Source: Escherichia coli (GTDB lineage Bacteria; Pseudomonadota; Gammaproteobacteria; Enterobacterales; Enterobacteriaceae). Taken from it: a stretch of DNA of 64,000 bases. A program made the position numbers and the translations under genes. The notes below the pieces were generated by a model that made no database searches, was not told where the DNA came from, and saw only the letters and a list, made by a program, of their open reading frames with translations. Position 1 is the stretch's first letter. Each line of letters opens with the position of its first letter. This document shows positions 4,273 to 22,892 of the stretch, in pieces. The stretch lies in the NCBI GenBank assembly GCA_025336725.1, contig GCA_025336725.1_3647.1; one strand, 5' to 3'.

Positions 4273-4950
4273 TTAAAAACTGCGTTTGCGTCTTGGGTGG
4301 CGAGGAGGTTGGTTATTTAGACCACTGATAGGTGTAATCCCCTGGACATCGAACGGTCCGTTGCTGTTTTCATTAAATTTAACCCGAATTCCTTCATCTA
4401 CACGAACACCCCCAATGATAATCATTCTGCTGTAAGCATCTAGCTCAGAATCTACATAGTCTGGGTTTGCCAGCAACCAATCAAGGAAATCTTTCCATTG
4501 GGCGTAGGAAGATCCACCACGAATCTCTATGGTCTCATCACCTATTTTTTCCAGACGGGAAGTTATACTTGCATTACCGCTGGACACTTCCTGCATCATC
4601 AGCCACCGCACAAGCTGCACAAGCACATTGTACTTAAGTAGGGGAAGCTTATCAGGGTCTGCCGGATAATTTAATTTCAACTTTTCCATGTCAAGGAATG
4701 TTTTAATTACCTCATCAGGGAGGGTTTCCTCATCAACATTGCCAAGCAACAACCTCATAATATTAATAAGAGGTTGGTCTGGATCAGGTTCCGGAGGTAC
4801 AGGATCTTCTTTTGGTGGTTCTTCTGGGGTATCGACTACACCATCATGGTTAGGCGGGGACGGGATAATCTCTTCATCTTCATACCATGCCATTTGAAAA
4901 TACCTCGTAAAAATAAAGCCCCATTCCTGATTTGGAAGGGGCCTTAACAA
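4273..4950 (-). CDS. Hypothetical virion protein
   Basis: Track ORF uses TTG at 4950; likely true start is ATG at 4893 (MAWYEDEE...); proline/acidic-rich N-terminus. Confidence 0.3.
   Translation of the reverse strand: MLRPLPNQEWGFIFTRYFQMAWYEDEEIIPSPPNHDGVVDTPEEPPKEDPVPPEPDPDQPLINIMRLLLGNVDEETLPDEVIKTFLDMEKLKLNYPADPDKLPLLKYNVLVQLVRWLMMQEVSSGNASITSRLEKIGDETIEIRGGSSYAQWKDFLDWLLANPDYVDSELDAYSRMIIIGGVRVDEGIRVKFNENSNGPFDVQGITPISGLNNQPPRHPRRKRSF
4917..4942 (-). terminator. Weak hairpin plus T-tract between two head-completion genes
   Basis: GCCCC/GGGGC stem with a long loop, followed on minus strand by TTTATTTT. Confidence 0.25.
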
Positions 4951-4952
4951 AA

Positions 4953-5768
4953 TTATGCCAGTGCAGCCTCAAAATCTTTCATCATATTTTGGAAAGTTTT
5001 TGCCTTACTTAAGGTAACACCGTGCTCTTTAGCGAAGGTTTGGAGTGCATCTTTTGAACCACTTTTGTCATCTTCGTTGTTAAGAGCTGCGGCCTGTTTA
5101 AGGATTTCATCCTTATTCTCAACAGCTGCAGATGCGAAAGAGGCTACAGTCACATCTTGTGGATCTGCTACAGGACCTTCACCGTCACCCTCAAGAGGTG
5201 GTTCCGGAACTTCAGGTTCAGGCTCTGGGGCCACTGTAGAGGTCAGCCCAAGATTTACAACCTGAGAGCGTTTCTTAGGCCATTCGATGGTGAAAGTTTG
5301 GGTATCTTCTTCATAAACAATGTTGCATTGCTCATCGTTTATGGTCACTTTCTTAGGCATACCTTCAGGGTCCCACAGATGGCCCTCTGCAACGGAAACT
5401 TGGAAAGCAGCATCTACTTCTTTAAATACTGACGGGGTGAGTGTGATATTGACATCCCCACTTTGCAGTGTTAAAGTGCTTTCATCAAGGTTTTCTGTGA
5501 AGAACAGAAGAATAACACCCATACGGATAGTTGAAATACCAGTATCAATTGGCAGGCCTGTGTGTTTTGCAATCTTCTGGAAGAAGTCTACAATCGTTCT
5601 ACATGGATAGTGAACACTGCCAATAACGAATTCTGTTGGGGGCAGCAGAGCTGATAAACCAACATTGATTTCTGGATTGTATTGTGCTAAAAATTGATAA
5701 AAACTTAATTGATTGTTGAAAACTCTTAATAGAGGATCATACTCAACTGGATATACGGCTCTCTTCAC
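4953..5768 (-). CDS. Hypothetical virion protein
   Basis: 271-aa track ORF directly downstream of the major capsid terminator. Confidence 0.3.
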   Translation of the reverse strand: MKRAVYPVEYDPLLRVFNNQLSFYQFLAQYNPEINVGLSALLPPTEFVIGSVHYPCRTIVDFFQKIAKHTGLPIDTGISTIRMGVILLFFTENLDESTLTLQSGDVNITLTPSVFKEVDAAFQVSVAEGHLWDPEGMPKKVTINDEQCNIVYEEDTQTFTIEWPKKRSQVVNLGLTSTVAPEPEPEVPEPPLEGDGEGPVADPQDVTVASFASAAVENKDEILKQAAALNNEDDKSGSKDALQTFAKEHGVTLSKAKTFQNMMKDFEAALA

Positions 5769-5789
5769 GGGACACTCCTGTTAAACCCT

Positions 5790-5824
5790 AATAAAATAAA
5801 AAAGGGGGGGAGAACCCCTCCCCA
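5790..5824 (-). terminator. Intrinsic terminator after major capsid gene
   Basis: Minus-strand GGGGAGGGG-ttct-CCCCCCC hairpin followed by TTTTTTTATTTT. Confidence 0.6.
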
Positions 5825-5847
5825 TATGGGATGAATCACCTTAGTGA

Positions 5848-6858
5848 TTAGCCACCGTTTTTCAGAGTTACTTTAACAACCAGCTCTGGACGGGTGTTAA
5901 CTGCCAGCATAGAAGTTTCAGATTCAATCTTCTCTTCACGCAGGTATGCAGAGTGTTTATACCACATATACAGTTCCTGTGCTGGGGTATTTGCTTCGTT
6001 AACATCGTCTGCCGGAGCAAAGTGCAGCTGGAACATCTGATCAATACCCATCGGCAGAATGCGAGCTTCTTTCGTAGGAATATTGCCAGAGATATCTTCG
6101 ATAAAGGTGATACCTTTATGCTCAAACACACGGTATACGCTGTCTTGACCGCCAGCACCAAGACGGCGACGCAGAGGTTCCTGAGCAGAGCCGTAATAGG
6201 TGTATGCCAGTTCTACCAGAGGGTGATGGGTAATAGCACTGAAGAACTCCGGTGAGCACAGAGCTACAATACGATAGCCAGCTGCGTTATCGCCAGCTTG
6301 CAGCGCGATGTGCAGACGAGCTTCTTCCAGAACCTCCATCGGATCCTGATCTGCTTTTGCAGGGTCGATCTCAACAGATTTCTGAGACACACCCCACAGA
6401 GTGTAGTAGTCATACTGACAAGTTGTGTCGCCAGGTGCATAGGATTTACCCAGAATAGCCTGGAACAGCGCTTTCTCACGCAGTGCTTCATGAGAAACAC
6501 GGATACGGCGAACAACGCGGGTTACTACGTCCTGAACAGTTTTCGGAGCATCAGGGGTGAAGTAACGACGGAAGTTCTGAACATCTGCGGCAGTGATGCC
6601 TTTATCCAGAGGGAAGAACGGGATGTTCAGGTTTTTAACCTGGGCACGTTCACTACCAACGTAGTTACGCTCACCACCACGACGGCGTGCCGGAATGTCG
6701 GTTACAACTTCATCAACACGCTCGATCTGAGCAATTGTTGAGGTGCCGAGACGGGTTTCGAACAGATCCATACCAGTGATCAGTCGGAATTGGCGCGGAA
6801 CAAGGTCCAGAGTAGCACCTAAATCAACAATGCCAAATTCATCTTTACGAGTAATCAT
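5848..6858 (-). CDS. Major capsid protein (putative, HK97-fold)
   Basis: 336-aa ORF downstream of scaffold and decoration-like genes and followed by a strong terminator; typical capsid size. Confidence 0.6.
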   Translation of the reverse strand: MITRKDEFGIVDLGATLDLVPRQFRLITGMDLFETRLGTSTIAQIERVDEVVTDIPARRRGGERNYVGSERAQVKNLNIPFFPLDKGITAADVQNFRRYFTPDAPKTVQDVVTRVVRRIRVSHEALREKALFQAILGKSYAPGDTTCQYDYYTLWGVSQKSVEIDPAKADQDPMEVLEEARLHIALQAGDNAAGYRIVALCSPEFFSAITHHPLVELAYTYYGSAQEPLRRRLGAGGQDSVYRVFEHKGITFIEDISGNIPTKEARILPMGIDQMFQLHFAPADDVNEANTPAQELYMWYKHSAYLREEKIESETSMLAVNTRPELVVKVTLKNGG

Positions 6859-6908
6859 TTATTTCTCCAAAGTAAAACTTAAATATTTCCCGAACAATTT
6901 AGGGCTTA

Positions 6909-13088: not shown

Positions 13089-13165
13089 TGGTCTCCACGG
13101 AGTGATTCGAACACTCGACCTCCTGATCCCAAATCAGGCGCTCTACCAAGCTGAGCTACGCGGAG
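13089..13165 (-). tRNA. tRNA-Pro (anticodon TGG)
   Basis: Hand-folded cloverleaf: acceptor CTCCGCG/CGTGGAG, anticodon stem CCTGA/TCAGG with loop TTTGGGA, T-loop TTCGAAT, encoded CCA. Confidence 0.65.
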
Positions 13166-13174
13166 TTTATAATT

Positions 13175-13249
13175 TGGTGGCCCTGGGTGGAATTGAACCA
13201 CCGTCTGGCGATTATGAGTCGCTTGCTTGAACCTTCCAGCTACAGGGCC
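13175..13249 (-). tRNA. tRNA-Met (anticodon CAT; could be Ile-lysidine)
   Basis: Acceptor GGCCCTG/CAGGGCC, anticodon loop CTCATAA, T-loop TTCAATT, encoded CCA. Confidence 0.6.
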
Positions 13250-13250
13250 A

Positions 13251-13326
13251 TGGTGCTGATGGCAGGACTCGAACCTGCAACCTATTGATTACAAATCAAT
13301 TGCACTACCAATTGTGCTACATCAGC
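13251..13326 (-). tRNA. tRNA-Thr (anticodon TGT)
   Basis: Acceptor GCTGATG/CATCAGC, anticodon stem ATTGA/TCAAT with loop TTTGTAA, T-arm GCAGG-TTCGAGT-CCTGC, CCA. Confidence 0.6.
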
Positions 13327-13331
13327 AAAAA

Positions 13332-13430
13332 GGTGCTAGGCGATGGAATCGAACCACCTATGTATTCAACGACTACTTCGTCTATTTTCAGGATTAAAAA
13401 TCCTCGCCCTTGCCAAAGGGCCTACCTAGC
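13332..13430 (-). tRNA. Atypical tRNA-like element (~99 nt), identity unresolved
   Basis: Good acceptor (GCTAGGT/GCCTAGC), D-arm and T-arm (GGTGG-TTCGATT-CCATC); only plausible anticodon hairpin AGGA-TTTTTAA-TCCT (TTT) plus a ~30-nt variable region with its own hairpin. Confidence 0.4.
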
Positions 13431-13528
13431 ATATTATGCGAATCATGCTGCTAGTCGGCGATGACGACTGTAACATTTGTTAATCCGGTTCTGCTTCCGG
13501 AGCTCGCTTAATTTCATGATCCACGATC

Positions 13529-13618
13529 TGGCAGAGAGTAATGGAATCGAACCATCATCGAGGATATCTCAACGGGACGGTTTTCAAGACCGCTTGAGCA
13601 CCATGCTCCCTACTCTCT
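13529..13618 (-). tRNA. tRNA-Ser (anticodon TGA), long variable arm
   Basis: Acceptor AGAGAGT/ACTCTCT, anticodon stem GCGGT/ACCGT with loop CTTGAAA, ~20-nt variable arm, T-loop TTCGATT, CCA. Confidence 0.6.
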
Positions 13619-13730
13619 TTTTATAAACAACACTGATAATGACACTGATTTTCGAACAGTTAGTGACTAGTATAAACGACGATAAACATCAATGTCATTA
13701 TCTATGTTATTTATCACAAATATGTAATTT

Positions 13731-13817
13731 TGGTGGGGAGTGATGGAGTCGAACCACCCGAGTCGCAATGACAATAGATTTACAGTCTACACCGCTACCC
13801 CTACGGTATAACTCCCC
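13731..13817 (-). tRNA. tRNA-Tyr (anticodon GTA), long variable arm
   Basis: Acceptor GGGGAGT/ACTCCCC, anticodon stem GTAGA/TCTAT with loop CTGTAAA, ~15-nt variable arm, T-loop TTCGACT, CCA. Confidence 0.6.
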
Positions 13818-13821
13818 GATT

Positions 13822-13896
13822 TGGCACCCCGTACTGGACTCGAACCAGTGTCAACGGCTTAGAAGGCCGCTGCTTTATCCACTAAGCTAACAGGGC
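13822..13896 (-). tRNA. tRNA-Arg (anticodon TCT)
   Basis: Anticodon stem GCGGC/GCCGT with loop CTTCTAA, T-loop TTCGAGT, CCA; acceptor contains G-U wobbles. Confidence 0.55.
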
Positions 13897-13992: not shown

Positions 13993-14187
13993 TTAACTGT
14001 TGCTAACAGGCTGTATTTCGGTGGTAAACGGCATAAAAGGTGCTGGTTTTTCAGCCTCTTCTACTACCACCTCTTCTTCCTCTTCACCAAACATCTCATC
14101 ATATTCTTCCTGCATTCTGTCTGCCTTGTCAAGGACATACTCTGCAATGCTTTGACGAATATTTTGTTTGGTTTTCGGATCCAACAT
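13993..14187 (-). CDS. Hypothetical protein, 3' portion (5' end lost in assembly gap)
   Basis: Acidic C-terminal ORF segment running into the N-run. Confidence 0.3.
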   Translation of the reverse strand: MLDPKTKQNIRQSIAEYVLDKADRMQEEYDEMFGEEEEEVVVEEAEKPAPFMPFTTEIQPVSNS

Positions 14188-14288
14188 CNNNNNNNNNNNN
14201 NNNNNNNNNNNNNNNNNNNNNNNNNNNNNNNNNNNNNNNNNNNNNNNNNNNNNNNNNNNNNNNNNNNNNNNNNNNNNNNNNNNNNNNN
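14188..14288. other. Assembly gap (run of N)
   Basis: About 100 consecutive N characters in the sequence. Confidence 0.95.
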
Positions 14289-16052: not shown

Positions 16053-16403
16053 CTAACCAGTTGTCGACATGTGAATCACTTCTTCTGGTGGTAAAACTTT
16101 AGAAAATGTGCATCTTTTCCCTCTCCCTTGTGTGGAAGTTTCAACTATCCCAGCACACTCTAAAGTTCTAACGCATTCTGCTGCTTTCGTTTTCTTAATC
16201 CCTGTATCAGCTGCAATTTTCCTTGTGCTTGGTGTGAATCGTGAATTTCCTCCAAGCTTATACCAGTTGTGCAGATAGCAGTATACTACCTTGTCATACA
16301 GATCAAGAATAACCACCTCTCCTGTTGTAGTATTCAAAACTTTCGACAGAGAAAGTATCCCAAGCGGGACTTTAAGATAGGGCAGCTTATCCTCATCTTT
16401 CAT
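16053..16403 (-). CDS. Small DNA-binding-like protein (possible winged helix)
   Basis: 116-aa track ORF; segment RKIAADTGIKKTKAAECVRTLECAGIV resembles an HTH; adjacent to the palindrome array. Confidence 0.3.
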   Translation of the reverse strand: MKDEDKLPYLKVPLGILSLSKVLNTTTGEVVILDLYDKVVYCYLHNWYKLGGNSRFTPSTRKIAADTGIKKTKAAECVRTLECAGIVETSTQGRGKRCTFSKVLPPEEVIHMSTTG

Positions 16404-16450
16404 ATCTCCTGATTCTCCTTGTGTGGATATTTTCTTTAATATAGCAGGGA

Positions 16451-17005
16451 TTACTCCCTGCTGTCAATATCAAAACCCATTGCAAGGCCGTATGCCTCTT
16501 CTAGCGGTAACAGTCTCCCCCACACATCCCAACCAACATCCAACTGCCTGCCAAATAACTGTTGTGTGGTTCCGTGAGCATGACCAAACAGTTGAACTGA
16601 TCCGTGGGGCTTTCTGTTCCACGTTGCAAACTGGTAATGGCTCATACAGATCAGATTCTTGTTGTGGCGAAGCTCGTAATAATCTACAACCTCATGACAG
16701 AACTCTTTCATAATTCTGACAGTCGTCCTTGTGTCATGGTTACCACGAACAAGAATAATATGTCCGTTCAGCATATTTAGAATTTCAGGCAGTAAGTTGT
16801 TGATATTCTTATCCTTAGTGCATGCAATGTCTCCCAAGTGGAACACGGTGTCCCATGGTGACACAATTGAGTTCCACTTGTCTATGATCCCTGCATTCAT
16901 GCTATCAAGATCGTGGTTATACTGCGATCTGTGCTTTTGACAAGAATCGAACTCCATAACACGCTGGTGGAGAAAGTGTGTGTCACTTGTTATAAAATAT
17001 TTCAT
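16451..17005 (-). CDS. Calcineurin-like metallophosphoesterase
   Basis: Motifs SDTHF (DxH), GD, LVRGNHD (GNHD), GHAHG (GHxH). Confidence 0.75.
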   Translation of the reverse strand: MKYFITSDTHFLHQRVMEFDSCQKHRSQYNHDLDSMNAGIIDKWNSIVSPWDTVFHLGDIACTKDKNINNLLPEILNMLNGHIILVRGNHDTRTTVRIMKEFCHEVVDYYELRHNKNLICMSHYQFATWNRKPHGSVQLFGHAHGTTQQLFGRQLDVGWDVWGRLLPLEEAYGLAMGFDIDSRE

Positions 17006-17012
17006 ACTATCC

Positions 17013-17423
17013 TCATTTAAGTTTAATACAGTTTTTCAGTTCACGTTCCATACGATCCACAACCCTTTCTGGAACATTGTGGATACTTTTGTTACCGTGG
17101 CGATTCTCCACCACGATTACGGTGTAATTATACCCATTACGGATCGCCATGTCAATATACTCTTGCACATGCTTTTCTTTTGTGAATGTGTTGCTTACCA
17201 CGACACGGTCGTATCCCATACGCATCATATCTTCTATATTATCTTTGCACCATTTTGCAGCAAGTGTGACTTTACTTGCATCCCAGTTGTAATTTCCATC
17301 ATCGTCGTACCAGAACATGTCGTTCTCAAAATGTGGATACAGACCTTCTAAAGATAGCGCATTTGCCAGTGTTGATTTGCCAGACCCTGGTAGACCACGC
17401 ACGATATACAGCATTTTAGACAT
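17013..17423 (-). CDS. P-loop kinase (polynucleotide-kinase-like candidate)
   Basis: Walker A GLPGSGKST right after start; start refined to Met 34 with GGAGGG RBS (track ORF runs to 17522). Confidence 0.45.
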   Translation of the reverse strand: MSKMLYIVRGLPGSGKSTLANALSLEGLYPHFENDMFWYDDDGNYNWDASKVTLAAKWCKDNIEDMMRMGYDRVVVSNTFTKEKHVQEYIDMAIRNGYNYTVIVVENRHGNKSIHNVPERVVDRMERELKNCIKLK

Positions 17424-17502
17424 AGCGACCCTCCGTTTTAATTTTAACGACAGTATACCGTGTTCTTTTGAACATTTCAAGTGTTGACATGATGCTGTTT
17501 GT

Positions 17503-18459
17503 GTGGGAAGATTGTGTAACAAAATGACAAACGAGGAACGTATGATGAAGTATTTTAATGCAGATGATTTAGTGGATAAAGGTCTTGTAACCAGTCGGTA
17601 TTATCCAAATCTCGGATTAAAGATCTACAAATATGCCAGAAAAGTATTCTACAACAATTTATGGCATTTGTCTCCGCGTCTACTGGAGTGCCGAGGCATT
17701 GTTGTCGGTAACGAGGGGAATGTTGTGGCATGGCCCTTCACAAAAGTGTTTAACTTAGGAGAAAACTCCACCAACCTACCTGACAATAAGCTTGTGACGG
17801 CTGTAGAGAAAAAGAACGGGTTCCTTGGCGTGGTATCCTCTCATAAAGGTGAACTATTGTTCTCAACGACTGGGTCTCTTGATTCTCCATATTGTAACCT
17901 TGCAAAGGAAACCATCCAGGAGCAATGTGGCAATTTAGATCTTATCAAGAAGGTTATGGGCCATGAAAACATGACATTTATGTTTGAAATTTGTCACCCT
18001 TCAGACCCGCATATTGTTCATGAGGATCATGGTGCGTATTTGATAGGTTGTAGATACAATGATTCTGGAATAATGCTACCAGAAGCGGCTTTAGACGGTA
18101 TTGCCAAGTATCTTGGTGCAAAACGTCCTCACACTGTGCGTGAAATTCCGTTCAGCTATGCAAAAGAATTAGCTGCAGAAACAAGAGGTGAAGGGTATAT
18201 GATTCGTAAGCCTTACTACCCTTATGATCTGCAGCTGAAGATCAAGTCTCCATACTATTTGGCACGGAAGGCCGTAATGAGGGGTAAAGCTTGGAAGATT
18301 TGGGATGATGATATCTTTAAACGTGTTGACGAAGAGTTTTATGGCATGGTAAACTTCATTCGTAGCAATTACACAGAAGATGTGTGGAACTGCCTCCTGG
18401 AGCAAGAACGTCGTGAGATACTTGACTGCTATTTCCACAACGAGGACTATATGCAATGA
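17503..18459 (+). CDS. ATP-dependent RNA ligase-like nucleotidyltransferase
   Basis: Motif I EKKNGF (KxNG), motif IV GEGYMIRK, motif V LKIKSP; likely start at a downstream Met (17524 or 17542). Confidence 0.55.
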   Translation: MGRLCNKMTNEERMMKYFNADDLVDKGLVTSRYYPNLGLKIYKYARKVFYNNLWHLSPRLLECRGIVVGNEGNVVAWPFTKVFNLGENSTNLPDNKLVTAVEKKNGFLGVVSSHKGELLFSTTGSLDSPYCNLAKETIQEQCGNLDLIKKVMGHENMTFMFEICHPSDPHIVHEDHGAYLIGCRYNDSGIMLPEAALDGIAKYLGAKRPHTVREIPFSYAKELAAETRGEGYMIRKPYYPYDLQLKIKSPYYLARKAVMRGKAWKIWDDDIFKRVDEEFYGMVNFIRSNYTEDVWNCLLEQERREILDCYFHNEDYMQ

Positions 18460-18504
18460 AGAAGTGGAAAGTTCTTTTTAATCATTCCAGCTTAAGGGAG
18501 CTGT

Positions 18505-19113
18505 ATGAAACTTGTGCATGGTGTTGGTGTTAATGATGCAGACTATCCTGTCAGGGTTTTAGACAAGGATACCGGAAAGAGAATCATGTGTCCTTTTTAT
18601 ATGACATGGTCAAATATGCTAGGAAGGTGCTACCTTAAAAACAAGAAATTTGAAGCTTATGCTATGGTAGAAGTTTGTGAAGAATGGAAAATCTTCAGCA
18701 ACTTTAAGCGCTGGATGGAAAAACAAGATTGGCGGGATAAATTTTTAGATAAAGATATCCTGTTTGAAAATAATCTTATATACTGTCCAGAAGCGTGTAT
18801 TTTTGTTCCTCGTGAAATAAACAACTTCTTTGTAGCAAGGGTACCACAAAGAGGGGAGTGTTTGATGGGAGTAAGAAGAAAAGGCCCATCTTTTGCTGCC
18901 TATTGCAAAGATGGGGTTAATGACACACAGGTTTATCTTGGAACCTTTCCCACGCAGATTGAGGCACATATGAAATACTTGGAATGCAAACTGCAACTTC
19001 TTAGAGACTTGATTAGAACTGTAGATGACAGTAGGTTGCTATTAGGATTACGAAGAATTGAGAGTAAGATAGTTTTAGCTTTATCTTCAAAAACACCGAT
19101 AGAAAATTTTTAG
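18505..19113 (+). CDS. AP2-domain protein (homing-endonuclease-related DNA-binding protein?)
   Basis: C-terminal GVRRKGPSFAAYCKDG...YLGTFPTQIEAHMKY resembles an AP2/ERF-type domain; no HNH or GIY-YIG motif seen. Confidence 0.4.
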   Translation: MKLVHGVGVNDADYPVRVLDKDTGKRIMCPFYMTWSNMLGRCYLKNKKFEAYAMVEVCEEWKIFSNFKRWMEKQDWRDKFLDKDILFENNLIYCPEACIFVPREINNFFVARVPQRGECLMGVRRKGPSFAAYCKDGVNDTQVYLGTFPTQIEAHMKYLECKLQLLRDLIRTVDDSRLLLGLRRIESKIVLALSSKTPIENF

Positions 19114-19121
19114 AGGGATGT

Positions 19122-19469
19122 ATGAAAGTCTGGATAGATGATTTGCGTAACCCAGCTGATTACGGACAGGCAGATGCAGTTTGGTTTAAAACTTCACAAG
19201 AGGCTATGGAGTTTCTCAATACTCCTGCTAAAATGTATCGAAGAGTGACAGAGTGGTTTTTTGACCACGATTTGGGTGAAGACTCTGATCAAGACGGGTA
19301 TGCTGTTTTATTGCGCCTGGAAGAGCTATTTGTATTTGGCAAGCCACCTGTTGTTGACAACGTGAAGATTTTCGTGCATACTTCTAACCCATCAGCAGCT
19401 CGTAAATTTATGCTTGCTGCAGATTCGTTCAGAAAGTTTGGAATAGAGATCAAACAGAACATTTACTGA
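19122..19469 (+). CDS. Hypothetical protein
   Basis: 115-aa track ORF immediately upstream of Sir2 with a 9-nt gap. Confidence 0.35.
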   Translation: MKVWIDDLRNPADYGQADAVWFKTSQEAMEFLNTPAKMYRRVTEWFFDHDLGEDSDQDGYAVLLRLEELFVFGKPPVVDNVKIFVHTSNPSAARKFMLAADSFRKFGIEIKQNIY

Positions 19470-19477
19470 GGACACCT

Positions 19478-20239
19478 ATGCGACGACTGATTATTATCTC
19501 TGGTGCTGGCTTGAGTGCTGAATCCGGTATCCCCACCTTTCGATCTGGTAGCACTGCAATGTGGGAGAATTTCAGCATCGATGAGGTGTGTAACATCCAC
19601 ACCTTTGCCAAGAACTACTATAAGGTGCATGACTTTTACAATGCACGGCGTGTAGCTCTGGGTAGTGTTGAGCCCAATCTTGCACATCTCCGGATCGCCG
19701 AGTGGTATTCTCGCTGGTCTGGTCGTGTAATCAACCTGACCACCAATGTAGATGATTTGCTGGAGCGTGCTGGTGTAAAACATGAAGATATTTTACATGT
19801 CCACGGGTATTTGCCAGAAATAGTCTATGAGGACGATGAAGGAAGTAATGTCATTAAAGACGTTGGGTATTCGGAGGTAGATGCAGGAGAGTATATTTGG
19901 GTTAAGCCTAATGTGGTATTCTTCGGAGAAGTTGCTCCAAAGTACACAGACATGTATGACCTATTGACTTCTCTGACAAGCAATGATATGGTTATCCTTG
20001 TAGGGTGCTCAAACACAGTTATCAATTTTAACTGGGAGCTGTTCCCTGCCTGTAACAAGGGCACTAAGCTGTTGATTGTTAACAAATACGACTCACAGCA
20101 TTTGGAGGAGAATGGCATTTCACGTAGTGACATTTACCAGTATGAGGATCGCGGCATTCCTGTTTGGTTTAACGGGGCGGTTGACGCTTTCTCTGATAAA
20201 ACATTTATTGAAACTGTAGAAAACTTCATGGAACTTTAA
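19478..20239 (+). CDS. Sir2-family NAD-dependent protein (no zinc ribbon)
   Basis: Sirtuin signature GAGLSAESGIPTFR, TTNVD, catalytic HG; no CxxC pairs between HG and VVFFGE. Confidence 0.75.
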   Translation: MRRLIIISGAGLSAESGIPTFRSGSTAMWENFSIDEVCNIHTFAKNYYKVHDFYNARRVALGSVEPNLAHLRIAEWYSRWSGRVINLTTNVDDLLERAGVKHEDILHVHGYLPEIVYEDDEGSNVIKDVGYSEVDAGEYIWVKPNVVFFGEVAPKYTDMYDLLTSLTSNDMVILVGCSNTVINFNWELFPACNKGTKLLIVNKYDSQHLEENGISRSDIYQYEDRGIPVWFNGAVDAFSDKTFIETVENFMEL

Positions 20240-20252
20240 AAGGAGACCTTTA

Positions 20253-20966
20253 ATGCTGAATACTAAGTTAATTGACAATCTGGAAAAACTGTCCCAACCT
20301 GAAAACTACCTTTGGTCTGCCAACTGGGTGGAAAACTGGAACCGTGTGGCAGCTAAAGTGAAAAAATCATACACACCATTCGAATTACAGCTTAGCTTCA
20401 TTGAGGAAGAGTTTAATGAAGTTCTGGAAGAGCTGGAGAAAGGTGATGGTGGAGATCATCTGCTAAAAGAGGCCTGCGATCTTCATGTTGTTACAAGCTA
20501 TGCCGCTTATCTTGTTAATGATAATCATGAAAAGTGGTCAAACCTGTTTGATAATCCGCGAGGTCTTAAGTTTAAGATCGGTGAGTTCTATGACACACTG
20601 ATCGCTGCGAAAAACACCTCCAAGCAAAAAGCTTCTGCTTACCGCCTGGCGGAGTTGTCAACAGCTTTGCTATTCCAGCTTCGCGGTGATGTGTGCGGGA
20701 TGATGCGGAAGGTTCTCAAATCTAATGACAGCAAGTTTGCACGGGTCAACCATCTACGGTATTCACACGGTGCCAGTGCAGATATGCCTGCTGAACAACT
20801 CGTAGAGTTAGAGATTAAAGATCTTGAGCGACGCTTCGATGGTCGATATGAAGGTTTTGTTGCTAAAGAAGAATTCTACAACGGTAATAAGGTTATCATC
20901 TTCCTTGACAGCAAAGGTAAGATCATGAAGCCTTCAAGCTTCAAGGATGTAACAGAGTATATTTAA
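20253..20966 (+). CDS. MazG-like nucleotide pyrophosphohydrolase domain protein (putative)
   Basis: EEEFNEVLEELEKGD...KEACDL resembles the MazG acidic motif; C-terminal half unknown. Confidence 0.4.
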   Translation: MLNTKLIDNLEKLSQPENYLWSANWVENWNRVAAKVKKSYTPFELQLSFIEEEFNEVLEELEKGDGGDHLLKEACDLHVVTSYAAYLVNDNHEKWSNLFDNPRGLKFKIGEFYDTLIAAKNTSKQKASAYRLAELSTALLFQLRGDVCGMMRKVLKSNDSKFARVNHLRYSHGASADMPAEQLVELEIKDLERRFDGRYEGFVAKEEFYNGNKVIIFLDSKGKIMKPSSFKDVTEYI

Positions 20967-21029
20967 CAACATAGCCGGGGTTACCCGGCTTTACCTGTTG
21001 TGGAAAGTAGTAAAGTGAGGTAGTTAGTT

Positions 21030-21338
21030 ATGTACAAGCACTCCAGGTATCTTGAAAACGATGCTGTGTTTGGGGATCAGATGAAAGAATTGGTTAAACT
21101 TATAGGCAGGATAGAGGATAAGTTTGACACTAAGATCTACATCGACAGCAAGGTCTTCAACCACAAAATATGGACAAATGTGTGTGTTGGACTACATGGG
21201 GATAGAGATGTAGTAAATTTAGTTGTAATTAAGTTCATAGTGTGGCAGAATAAGACTATAAGTTATTACGATCCACATCTGCTTGTTTACCCGATAAAAG
21301 ATCTATTAGAGAAGGAGGACTGCAATGCCATTATTTAA
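21030..21338 (+). CDS. Hypothetical protein
   Basis: 102-aa track ORF. Confidence 0.3.
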   Translation: MYKHSRYLENDAVFGDQMKELVKLIGRIEDKFDTKIYIDSKVFNHKIWTNVCVGLHGDRDVVNLVVIKFIVWQNKTISYYDPHLLVYPIKDLLEKEDCNAII

Positions 21339-21591
21339 TCTTGCTAAACCTGTAGAAGCACACCAGTTTGATGGAAGCTCTTCCTCAGCATCTGATCTGC
21401 AACGGTGGATTGATACAGGTGAGTTTACATCGTCACCTGTTCGGACCAGAGATATTCGTCGCATGTGTGAGCTTGTCGAGCGTTTGGTAACCTGGTCTTT
21501 TACAGGGGATTGGTTAGTTGACTTTATGGGAGACTGGCTGGTAATGAGTAAAGAAGAAATGTTTAAAATTTTTAAGGAGGAGACTGAGTAA
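21325..21591 (+). CDS. Hypothetical protein
   Basis: 88-aa track ORF. Confidence 0.3.
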   Translation: MPLFNLAKPVEAHQFDGSSSSASDLQRWIDTGEFTSSPVRTRDIRRMCELVERLVTWSFTGDWLVDFMGDWLVMSKEEMFKIFKEETE

Positions 21592-22892
21592 TGCATCAAA
21601 TCAAAACACCCCTGTACGCACTAAACAAAGATGGCAGTTACCAGCAGTGGAAAGTATTCACAGATGGTGAAAAGGTTATCGTAGAGTTTGGCAAGCTTGG
21701 CGGTAAATTGCAGTATAAAGAAACAGTATGCACGCCTAAGAACGTAGGTCGATCCAACGAGACTACAGCTGAGCAACAGGCCGAGCTGGAAGCGATCAGT
21801 AAGTGGGAAAAACAAGTTCGCCTGGGGTATGTTGAGAATATGGAAAATTGCGAGCAGGGTGTTGACCTTTTACCCATGCTGGTGCATGACTACCTGAAGC
21901 GTGGCAAGGCACTTAAATTACCTTGCTGGATCTTGCGTAAGTTAGATGGCCTTCGTCTGCTTGTTGTTTTCCAAAATGGTGAGCCTAAATTTATTTCCCG
22001 TGGTAATAAGTCCTACCCTATTCAAGGAAAGCTTTTAGAGCAACTTCGTTCTTTCCATTCTACCACTGGGATTAAACAACTTGATGGGGAACTATACATT
22101 CATGGTCTTCCTTTGCAGAAAATAGTGTCTCTTGCTAAACGGTGGCGCACACAGGAAGAGATTCAGGCCGAGATCGATAAAGACTACGAGGCAGATAAAA
22201 AACGCCGTCATGCCGCAATTAAGGCAGGCTTATCAACATACAAAAACTTCAATAAGGTAGATATTCCTGTTGATGTTGAGCCTGTTCGTGATGATTTGCG
22301 TTACGGAGGGTATTGTAGCTATGACTTAGAGTATCATATTTTCGACATCCCTAGCGACAAGGTATGGTGGGATCCGGAAACAGAATCTGGACGCTGTAAG
22401 GATCTTATGGATGCAGAAAATACCATTACCACTCTGATGCTTGACCATATCAAGGTTGTTGACGCAGAACTTGCGTACACAGTTGATCATTGCGAAGAAT
22501 CTGTTGGTGTATTCATGTCCGAAGGGTATGAAGGCACTATCATGCGTAACTTCTGTGGTAAATATGAATACGGTCAGCGAACATCTGAAGCGTTGAAATG
22601 GAAAAAATTCAACGACACGGAAGCCAAAGTGGTGGATGTAGAAAAGGATAAGAACGATGAGGGTGTTCTTGTCTGTGTTGACAAGGAAGGTGTTGTTGTT
22701 AAAATGAAGATGAAAGGGACGCACGAGGAGCGTAGTTATGACCGGATGCTGGAGTTGATTGGTAAGTTTGTGACTTTTAAATATCAGGCGCGAACAGAGG
22801 ATAACAACTTCCAGTTCCCGGTGGCTATATGCGTCCGAAATGTTAACCAGACACTTGGGAGGTGCTGGAATAATATAGGGTTTAGTAGGTAA
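21591..22892 (+). CDS. ATP-dependent DNA ligase
   Basis: Motif I KLDGLR, motif IV EGTIMR, motif V LKWKKF. Confidence 0.75.
   Translation: MHQIKTPLYALNKDGSYQQWKVFTDGEKVIVEFGKLGGKLQYKETVCTPKNVGRSNETTAEQQAELEAISKWEKQVRLGYVENMENCEQGVDLLPMLVHDYLKRGKALKLPCWILRKLDGLRLLVVFQNGEPKFISRGNKSYPIQGKLLEQLRSFHSTTGIKQLDGELYIHGLPLQKIVSLAKRWRTQEEIQAEIDKDYEADKKRRHAAIKAGLSTYKNFNKVDIPVDVEPVRDDLRYGGYCSYDLEYHIFDIPSDKVWWDPETESGRCKDLMDAENTITTLMLDHIKVVDAELAYTVDHCEESVGVFMSEGYEGTIMRNFCGKYEYGQRTSEALKWKKFNDTEAKVVDVEKDKNDEGVLVCVDKEGVVVKMKMKGTHEERSYDRMLELIGKFVTFKYQARTEDNNFQFPVAICVRNVNQTLGRCWNNIGFSR

Follow-up and report, generated by a model that had tools for sequence, protein, structure and literature searches.

A predicted RNA healing-and-sealing module of kinase, metallophosphoesterase and Rnl1-type ligase genes in a Vequintavirus-like phage

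Defences that cut tRNA and other RNA, such as PrrC, RloC, HEPN and toxin RNases and Cas13, form a major arm of bacterial immunity. To our knowledge, the only phage system for repairing such damage that has been worked out to date is that of T4, in which Pnkp and Rnl1 counter the anticodon nuclease PrrC. Here we analyse a cluster of three genes at positions 16451-18459 of a 64,000-nucleotide stretch of DNA deposited under Escherichia coli (GenBank assembly GCA_025336725.1, contig GCA_025336725.1_3647.1; the whole stretch is hereafter called the window), which are predicted to encode a metallophosphoesterase (MPE), a P-loop kinase and an RNA ligase, and compare them with the T4 enzymes and with the other repair systems that they resemble.

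Repair of nicked tRNA by T4 Pnkp and Rnl1 is established (summarised in PMC12445682). The window genes are likewise phage-encoded, the kinase has the fold of T4 Pnk with the catalytic Asp aligned, the ligase shares family and catalytic residues with Rnl1, and the logic would be the same, i.e., both ends are healed and then sealed. They differ in that the predicted 3'-end healer is a separate binuclear MPE, whereas in T4 a DxDxT/HAD domain joined to the kinase does this. A binuclear MPE is found in CthPnkp, of the bacterial Pnkp-Hen1 type, where, as in lambda phosphatase (lambda-Pase), it heals ends as a 2',3'-cyclic phosphodiesterase and phosphatase (PMC2190708). CthPnkp thus has the three chemistries predicted here, and its kinase domain (4gp7, 4jst) is similar to the window kinase model (TM 0.74-0.78). 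However, it is a single kinase-MPE-ligase polypeptide where the window has three separate genes, and the window ligase is Rnl1-like rather than of the Pnkp C-terminal ligase type; general Pfam and PHROG scans of the open reading frames (ORFs) at 16053-22892 gave no Hen1 or other methyltransferase. The Pnkp1-Rnl-Hen1 system of Capnocytophaga gingivalis (PMC4411300) also places ligase and healing enzymes on separate polypeptides, which cooperate there, and Pnkp1 has the best E-value to the window kinase profile among solved proteins matched over most of the length (4xrp, 5e-5). It is, however, built like T4 Pnkp, carries a phosphatase domain of the T4 type in the same polypeptide, requires Hen1, and is bacterial rather than phage-encoded. 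Lastly, fungal and plant Trl1 (LIG-KIN-CPD) acts with Tpt1, and the likeness extends to the ligase domain, which is close to the predicted window structure (6n0t, 8rbj, 9qw7; E ~1e-11), to a kinase that accompanies the ligase and is fused to it in some phages, and to an NAD-using enzyme encoded next door. In contrast to Trl1 and Tpt1, the window has no 2H cyclic phosphodiesterase, and its NAD-using enzyme is a sirtuin in place of a Tpt1/KptA ADP-ribosyltransferase.

The closest description is itself a prediction. Iyer, Burroughs, Anantharaman and Aravind (2022; Viruses 14:1977, PMC9503650) reported a sirtuin-linked 'type 2' neighbourhood, with Escherichia phage V5 as prototype and Proteus phage Mydo as a further member, that combines a T4-like tRNA ligase, a cyclic-phosphate-processing receiver domain (cREC), a kinase, a sirtuin, MazG and an 'occasional' calcineurin-like phosphoesterase, and predicted that these genes clean up and ligate RNA ends bearing 2',3'-cyclic phosphates. 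All six components are present within positions 16451-20966 of the window, in a phage of the same genus. Furthermore, a 2025 paper on the Pakpunavirus Adele noted an adjacent kinase and ligase as tRNA repair, the kinase being without a 3'-phosphatase domain, and GenBank records related to the window name all three genes ('RNA ligase' or 'RNA ligase 1 and tail attachment protein', 'polynucleotide kinase' or 'ATPase', and 'phosphoesterase'). The module is therefore known as a published prediction and routinely annotated; it is not new, and its earlier portrayal as perhaps an uncharacterised arrangement is not supported.

We consider it probable, at about 70%, that the trio is an RNA healing-and-sealing kit of kinase, MPE and Rnl1-type ligase that counters host cleavage of tRNA or other RNA, a reading based on sequence, predicted structures and analogy. 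The identities of the genes, their intact catalytic residues, predicted folds, conserved linkage and occasional fusion are seen directly. The MPE gene (184 aa; 16451-17005, minus strand) encodes a calcineurin-like, binuclear enzyme, the predicted healer of 2',3'-cyclic-phosphate or 3'-phosphate ends; the kinase gene (136 aa; 17013-17423, minus strand) encodes a standalone P-loop protein of the polynucleotide-kinase clade, a predicted RNA 5'-OH kinase; and the ligase gene (311 aa; 17524-18459, plus strand) encodes a member of the ATP-dependent Rnl1 family with a short C-terminal helical domain, the predicted sealing enzyme. Kinase and MPE genes run in the same direction with a gap of 7 nt, and the ligase gene diverges from them across a 100-bp spacer (17424-17523), the sequence of which was read directly. 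We took the kinase to start at the ATG of MSKMLYIV rather than at the upstream TTG at 17522, with which the homologues and the annotation of phage HMD-6 concur, and the ligase at the ATG at 17524 rather than at the GTG at 17503, as in its relatives. The preliminary description of this DNA, made from the sequence alone, had picked out the same three genes and proposed healing and sealing for them. The trio and all the motifs it quoted were recovered, each motif at positions that do not vary in the alignment of its family, and the proposed enzymology is supported computationally by family, fold, conserved linkage and kinase-ligase fusions.

The ligase matched Pfam RNA_lig_T4_1 (PF09511; 1.5e-14, 54.9 bits, over the gathering score of 28.3 bits) and phrog_562 (7e-66). 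Its motifs K96xN98G99, E155, E223G224 (in EGYMIRK) and K239xK241 (in LKIK) are invariant among 27-29 homologues. Residues R57, K74, F76, K96, N98, G99, E155, E223, G224, K239 and K241, all invariant in a 27-sequence alignment, align in HMMER with T4 Rnl1 R54, K75, F77, K99, D101, G102, E159, E227, G228, K240 and K242, respectively; the first three lie in a segment ECRG...PFTKVFN that corresponds to ECRG...PMEKFFN of the T4 enzyme. Mutagenesis from the Shuman laboratory is said to have identified these T4 residues, including Arg54, Lys75 and Phe77, as the set essential in Rnl1. A family profile was required to reach solved structures, with T4 Rnl1 (2c5u) matched at E=3e-13 among PDB sequences (HMMER); the single sequence gave no match in a PDB search. 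The AlphaFold2 model (pLDDT 91) has T4 Rnl1 as its best Foldseek match (9do4 and 2c5u; E 2.5e-12 to 6e-12, TMq 0.63), followed by archaeal Rnl3 and the fungal Trl1 ligase domain at E ~1e-12; DNA ligases match it less well (1e-5 to 1e-2). Profile and model thus both group the protein with T4 Rnl1 and the fungal tRNA ligase rather than with DNA ligases or capping enzymes, in keeping with its first reading as RNA ligase-like. Homologues form ~1,700 protein clusters at 90% identity, nearly all of ~300 aa, and were found in 669 deposited phage genomes, among them phages of Escherichia, Pseudomonas, Vibrio, Klebsiella, Acinetobacter and Streptomyces.

The same alignments bear on a different reading suggested by database names, e.g., 'RNA ligase and tail fiber protein attachment catalyst' (phrog_562, GenBank), which were transferred from T4 gp63. 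The ligase-like protein would then mainly be a tail-fibre attachment factor, as in the second activity of gp63, and the kinase and MPE would be unrelated enzymes of nucleotide metabolism. We regard this as highly improbable. The name is inherited through homology, and since none of the catalytic residues of the nucleotidyl transferase varies within the family, selection appears to act on ligase chemistry. Moreover, the conserved linkage and fusion with the kinase point to one pathway, and the cluster sits among early and DNA-metabolism genes, not tail genes.

The kinase matched AAA_33 (1.4e-10), phrog_2071 (3.5e-57) and phrog_505, 'polynucleotide kinase' (5e-10). The P-loop G9-L-P-G-S-G-K15-S-T17 is present, and D34, N77TFT80 and R107 are invariant in the family alignment. 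D34 aligns with the catalytic Asp35 of T4 Pnk, the general base, while R107 (in VENRH) lies in the lid region, where equivalence to T4 R122 or R126 is only approximate. With the single sequence, a PDB search returned P-loop noise only and again a family profile was required; over the full length this matched, among solved structures, only Pnkp1, T4 Pnk (1.5e-4), the kinase PSTK (5e-4) and CthPnk (8e-4). The profile also matches an RNA 5'-OH kinase of Mucorales, and adenylate kinases match it at the P-loop only. The AlphaFold2 model (pLDDT 86.5) is closest in Foldseek to the T4 Pnk kinase domain (TM 0.78-0.81; range 0.75-0.81), with PSTK at 0.71-0.75, gluconate kinases at 0.52-0.62, APS kinase at 0.51-0.53, adenylate and UMP-CMP kinases at 0.43-0.52 and shikimate kinase at 0.45. 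Profile and predicted fold thus place it in the T4 Pnk/CthPnk/PSTK group and not with the adenylate and dNMP kinases, the alternative that the preliminary description had named. The family comprises >2,300 homologous clusters and is tight, standalone, ~130 aa in length and ~50% identical to the window kinase. At 136 aa the window protein is the kinase domain alone, with no C-terminal HAD/DxDxT 3'-phosphatase domain, so the GenBank name '3'-phosphatase, 5'-polynucleotide kinase' overstates it.

The MPE matched PF00149 (9e-5; 23.4 bits, cut-off 21.5), PF12850 (5.7e-6) and phrog_547, 'phosphoesterase' (3e-50), and its five metal-binding motifs, D8xH10, HLGD59, GN89H90D, H123 and GH142xH144, are invariant in 25 homologues. 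A profile search of 1.84 billion representatives returned 7,403 clusters (50% identity) at E<=1e-30, nearly all standalone proteins of ~180-200 aa; Pfam scans of the eight longest hits gave no kinase or ligase domain, two of them (P0334 and P0378) being compared with the ligase profile as well. RNA 3'-end healing is predicted for it from gene context and from the precedent of CthPnkp and lambda-Pase (PMC2190708).

Linkage was assessed in 80 viral-contig loci with ligase homologues, which formed 60 clusters at 90% ligase identity. Six-frame ORFs of each locus (loci are denoted by L numbers) were searched with HMMs built from our own family alignments, and a gene within 6 kb of the ligase was counted as a partner. 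The ligases of these loci are 36-49% identical to that of the window, except in L007, at 88%. A kinase lies near the ligase in 53/60 clusters, an MPE in 53/60 and both in 48/60; a sirtuin and MazG were each found in 9/60, and cREC in 7/60. While the survey of Iyer et al. (2022) was sirtuin-centred, a ligase-centred count makes an aq_1665-type MPE and a small Pnk-like kinase the constant partners of the ligase, with sirtuin and cREC restricted to certain lineages, and this is the modest new point of our analysis. With MPE and kinase at most loci and cREC or Sir2 at only 7-9/60, the trio presumably suffices on its own. The gene order varies (MPE-LIG-KIN, KIN-LIG-MPE, LIG-MPE-KIN), start and stop codons often overlap, and the kinase-MPE pair is inverted relative to the ligase only in the clade of the window, being co-directional elsewhere in the 60 clusters.

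In three clusters, kinase and ligase are a single protein of 431-432 aa (L041 5530-6822; L046 574-1872; L054 5527-6825), in which Pfam finds AAA_33 at 16-115 and RNA_lig_T4_1 at 184-367. Together with the conserved linkage, these fusions place the genes in a single pathway. The three fusion loci have no MPE homologue within 6 kb; among their neighbours are a DNA ligase and a match to Pyr_excise (pyrimidine-dimer glycosylase) that is weak and under the cut-off, and ARAGORN made a tmRNA-like call at L054 12168-12570. Kinase-centred look-ups in three metagenomic contigs gave a ligase-kinase pair with the MPE two genes upstream (L003, L005/L006) and a kinase-MPE pair (L002). In L002, a 285-aa protein upstream of the kinase was considered as ligase and is not a ligase homologue, leaving the kinase-MPE pair only. 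Cultured examples outside the genus are the phi92-like phage PD114, with consecutive genes for phosphoesterase, ligase and a 134-aa protein, and Pseudomonas phage PAK_P1.

If the trio is indeed a healing-and-sealing kit, its substrates, order of steps and counter-defence role can be modelled on T4 Pnkp/Rnl1 and bacterial Pnkp. The target ends would be those made by metal-independent anticodon nucleases, HEPN RNases and many toxins. The MPE would open and remove the 2',3'-cyclic or 3'-phosphate to leave a 3'-OH, which is the chemistry of the CthPnkp MPE domain and lambda phosphatase; the small Pnk-type kinase would phosphorylate the 5'-OH; and the ligase would adenylylate itself on Lys96, pass the AMP to the 5'-phosphate and seal the nick, most plausibly in the tRNA anticodon loop, as with T4 Rnl1. 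The phage would thereby maintain translation in the face of tRNA or other RNA cleavage by host defences or toxins. The module is far commoner than the T4 version, and some of its carriers, among phages of E. coli, Pseudomonas, Klebsiella and Acinetobacter, are candidates for therapy. Should it work as predicted, it would help decide which hosts and defences such phages overcome, and a function would be assigned to a very large uncharacterised family of MPEs.

A number of observations weigh against this reading. The ligase scored 39.4 bits against the NCBIfam RnlA equivalog TIGR02308, far under the cut-off of 242; given the passed PF09511 threshold, it is best regarded as a divergent Rnl1-family member and not an RnlA equivalog. 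Residues ~255-374 of T4 Rnl1 form the C-terminal tRNA-specificity domain. The match of the ligase profile to T4 Rnl1 in HMMER stops at motif V, and the helical C-terminus that follows in the window protein has ~70 residues (243-311) against ~120 in T4 Rnl1 (the proteins being 311 and 374 aa long), so a tRNA specificity like that of T4 cannot be assumed. In the kinase, the position aligned to Arg38 of T4 Pnk is W, F or H across the family, i.e., it has no Arg38 equivalent. The MPE profile, searched against all PDB sequences, matched first the uncharacterised Aquifex protein aq_1665 (1xm7, 5e-27), then GpdQ (2e-6), YfcE and a PdeM-like MPE, with no match to lambda-Pase or the CthPnkp phosphatase domain at E<=0.1; by sequence it belongs to an aq_1665/COG4186-like clade and not to that of lambda-Pase and CthPnkp. 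The 60 loci are not fully independent, as synteny is shared by descent. Finally, we found no biochemical or genetic study of the module in the literature, including any on the activity of the three phage families.

Two further points in this group concern DNA. The MPE has weak matches to DNA-repair enzymes (PdeM TIGR04123, 8e-4; 'Nuclease MPE' 6nvo, 0.008), which are ligase-associated, DNA-damage MPEs, and in 24/60 clusters the gene for an ATP-dependent DNA ligase lies no more than 6 kb from that for the RNA ligase; the window has one too, beyond the MazG-like gene (21591-22892). A role at DNA ends is thus conceivable, in which kinase and MPE would heal them for the neighbouring DNA ligase, or for an Rnl1-like enzyme that acts on DNA, as part of a replication or repair module; T4 Pnk, which was solved with single-stranded DNA, also works on DNA 5'-OH ends. 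We judge it unlikely nonetheless: the tight and sometimes fused partner of the kinase is an Rnl1-type RNA ligase and not a DNA ligase, the relatives of that ligase by sequence and fold are tRNA and RNA ligases, and DNA ligase is missing from 36/60 neighbourhoods.

The tRNA genes near the trio could suggest a more ordinary function. ARAGORN calls six tRNAs at 13089-13896 (Pro, Met, Thr, Ser, Tyr and Arg), and the array ends 2.55 kb from the MPE stop codon. The preliminary description had counted seven tRNA genes at about this distance; the array and its distance stand, and the seventh gene is probably a sub-threshold tRNA-like element on the minus strand between tRNA-Thr and tRNA-Ser (13335-13430). 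This element was not called by ARAGORN in the window, its counterpart in the close relative L007 (270-367) is called 'tRNA-??? (atcc)', and its score against Rfam tRNA-Sec (29.5 bits, E=6.6e-4) is below threshold. In its cloverleaf the acceptor stem and T-arm (GGUUCGAUUCC) are intact and the variable region has ~30 nt; the anticodon arm is odd, one possible reading being a stem of 4 bp and the loop UUUUUAA, which would give a Lys-like UUU anticodon. The fold z-score is -3.8 against shuffles. It may be an unusual but functional tRNA, or else a decoy or pseudogene. With six tRNA genes and this element so close, and with tRNA genes in many other phages that bear the module, the trio might serve housekeeping RNA processing rather than counter-defence, e.g., maturation or turnover of the phage's own tRNA transcripts or salvage of RNase-cut RNAs. 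We find this improbable. A tRNA lies within 6 kb of the ligase in only 12/60 representative loci, and most Vequintavirus-like relatives have none, so the adjacency is not a conserved feature and is no evidence of function. No intron-containing tRNA was detected in the window array, and as far as we know, bacterial tRNA maturation needs no healing or sealing.

The local cluster reaches past the trio that was first described. Beyond the ligase and an HNH homing-endonuclease gene (18505-19113, plus strand; phrog_953 'HNH endonuclease', 1.7e-69), the plus strand carries genes for a cREC protein (115 aa; 19122-19469; PF20274 cREC_REC, 1.2e-16; phrog_1479, 1.7e-33), a Sir2-family protein (253 aa; 19478-20239; PF02146, 3.8e-27; phrog_2162, 2e-109) and a MazG-like nucleotide pyrophosphohydrolase (237 aa; 20253-20966; phrog_671, 6e-22; no Pfam match). 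This rightward run is tightly spaced and closes with a GC-rich, terminator-like hairpin just 3' of the MazG-like stop codon (20973-20990; AGCCGGGTAACCCCGGCT), at a site equivalent to a terminator predicted in the record of phage Gotham, and the hairpin is the likely end of a ligase-cREC-Sir2-MazG transcription unit. The Sir2 protein keeps the GAGxS, TTNVD and HG motifs, and its translation has no Cys pairs after the HG motif, where sirtuins normally bind zinc, which fits the 'distinct clade of sirtuins' of Iyer et al. (2022). The cREC domain was defined in a 2021 paper of that group on jumbo phages (PMC7824862) and is predicted to open cyclic phosphates (PMC7824862, PMC9503650), the sirtuin has been proposed to act like Tpt1/KptA, and MazG is listed in the V5-type neighbourhood (Iyer et al. 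2022, PMC9503650). In Vequintavirus-like phages these three genes could thus add to the kit an NAD-dependent route for 2'-phosphate ends, as proposed in the same work.

The trio might even be one arm of such a route, a sirtuin-centred repair resembling fungal Trl1 with Tpt1 (Iyer et al. 2022, PMC9503650). In that scheme cREC or the MPE would open the cyclic phosphate to leave a 2'-phosphate and 3'-OH, the kinase would act on the 5' end, the ligase would seal with the 2'-phosphate remaining at the junction, Sir2 would strip this phosphate with NAD+, and cREC and MazG would process the resulting ADP-ribose cyclic phosphate. The spacing of cREC, Sir2 and MazG-like genes directly after the ligase and up to the hairpin speaks for it, as do the same-strand order MPE-LIG-cREC-KIN-SIR2 in the sister clades L008, L012, L013 and L016, where the kinase gene lies between those of cREC and Sir2, and the fit of the ligase model to fungal Trl1-LIG, which is nearly as good as that to T4 Rnl1. 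We hold it to be a possible but clearly less probable account, and a variant of the healing-and-sealing reading that does not contradict it. Sirtuin and cREC are present at so few ligase loci, compared with MPE and kinase together, that the core trio evidently works without them; full removal of the phosphate by the MPE would make a 2'-phosphate route needless; and we know of no sirtuin that acts as an RNA 2'-phosphotransferase.

The trio, cREC and zinc-less Sir2 of Vequintavirus-like phages could form a Trl1/Tpt1-like route while, separately, MPEs of the aq_1665/COG4186 type act as RNA 3'-end healers, a doubtful proposal. If true, the sirtuin fold would gain a new enzymatic activity, removal of a 2'-phosphate with NAD+, cREC would represent a cyclic phosphodiesterase of a new class, and this type of MPE would be a new and very large RNA 3'-end healing family (>7,000 clusters). 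A link of the repair module to NAD metabolism recurs in two forms, as the module adjoins the sirtuin in Vequintavirus-like phages and an NAD+ gene pair in Pakpunaviruses. In Pakpunavirus-like phages the ligase-kinase pair lies directly upstream of a PRPP-synthetase-like gene (L003 5879-6727; L005 6247-7080 and 8013-10399; L088, i.e., PAK_P1, 4326-6867), which in L005 and PAK_P1 is followed by a nicotinamide/nicotinate phosphoribosyltransferase gene; the Adele paper (2025) describes that gene pair as the NAD+ reconstitution pathway of Pakpunaviruses.

The HNH gene sets the window apart from the V5-type neighbourhood. At the ligase/cREC site it is missing from all 123 related phage records, which cover at most 77% of a 3.5-kb query, and in phage HMD-6 the ligase and cREC genes overlap at their stop and start, respectively. 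Besides the window, a single phage record has the HNH DNA (SKA64, 87.6% identity). It looks like a recent insertion of a free-standing homing-endonuclease gene that splits the operon and is not a functional part of the cluster.

The window phage is an rV5-like relative of Vequintavirus, as judged by DNA identity of the region to Vequintavirinae sp. EcoIv14a_Aya (97.5%) and to Escherichia phages FV3, V18, Gotham, HMD-6 and >100 other rV5-like phages (~91%). PADLOC gave no meaningful defence-system match for the six cluster proteins. A sigma-70-like match (TTGAAA-17-TATACT) lies upstream of the kinase gene on the minus strand (17480-17452; consensus match only), and the record of phage Gotham has a predicted promoter at the equivalent position; within the 100-bp spacer there is no convincing sigma-70-type match for the ligase gene. 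A perfect 12/12 sigma-70 consensus (TTGACA-17-TATAAT) is found on the minus strand within the kinase gene (17155-17127), ~120 nt upstream of the MPE start, and could serve the phosphoesterase gene as an internal promoter (again from the consensus only).

Masked bases (N) at ~14170-14270, in the interval that separates the tRNA array from the repair genes, break ORFs on both strands. Directly downstream of the MPE gene and on the same strand is a gene for a small helix-turn-helix (HTH) protein (16053-16403, minus strand), which is preceded by a second strong sigma-70 match (16467-16438; 11/12 with an extended TG, from the consensus only). The protein scores barely over the Pfam cut-off for HTH_36 and barely under that for DUF6945, matches phrog_12838, 'replication initiation protein' (1.3e-71), and is named 'putative transcriptional regulator' in GenBank relatives.

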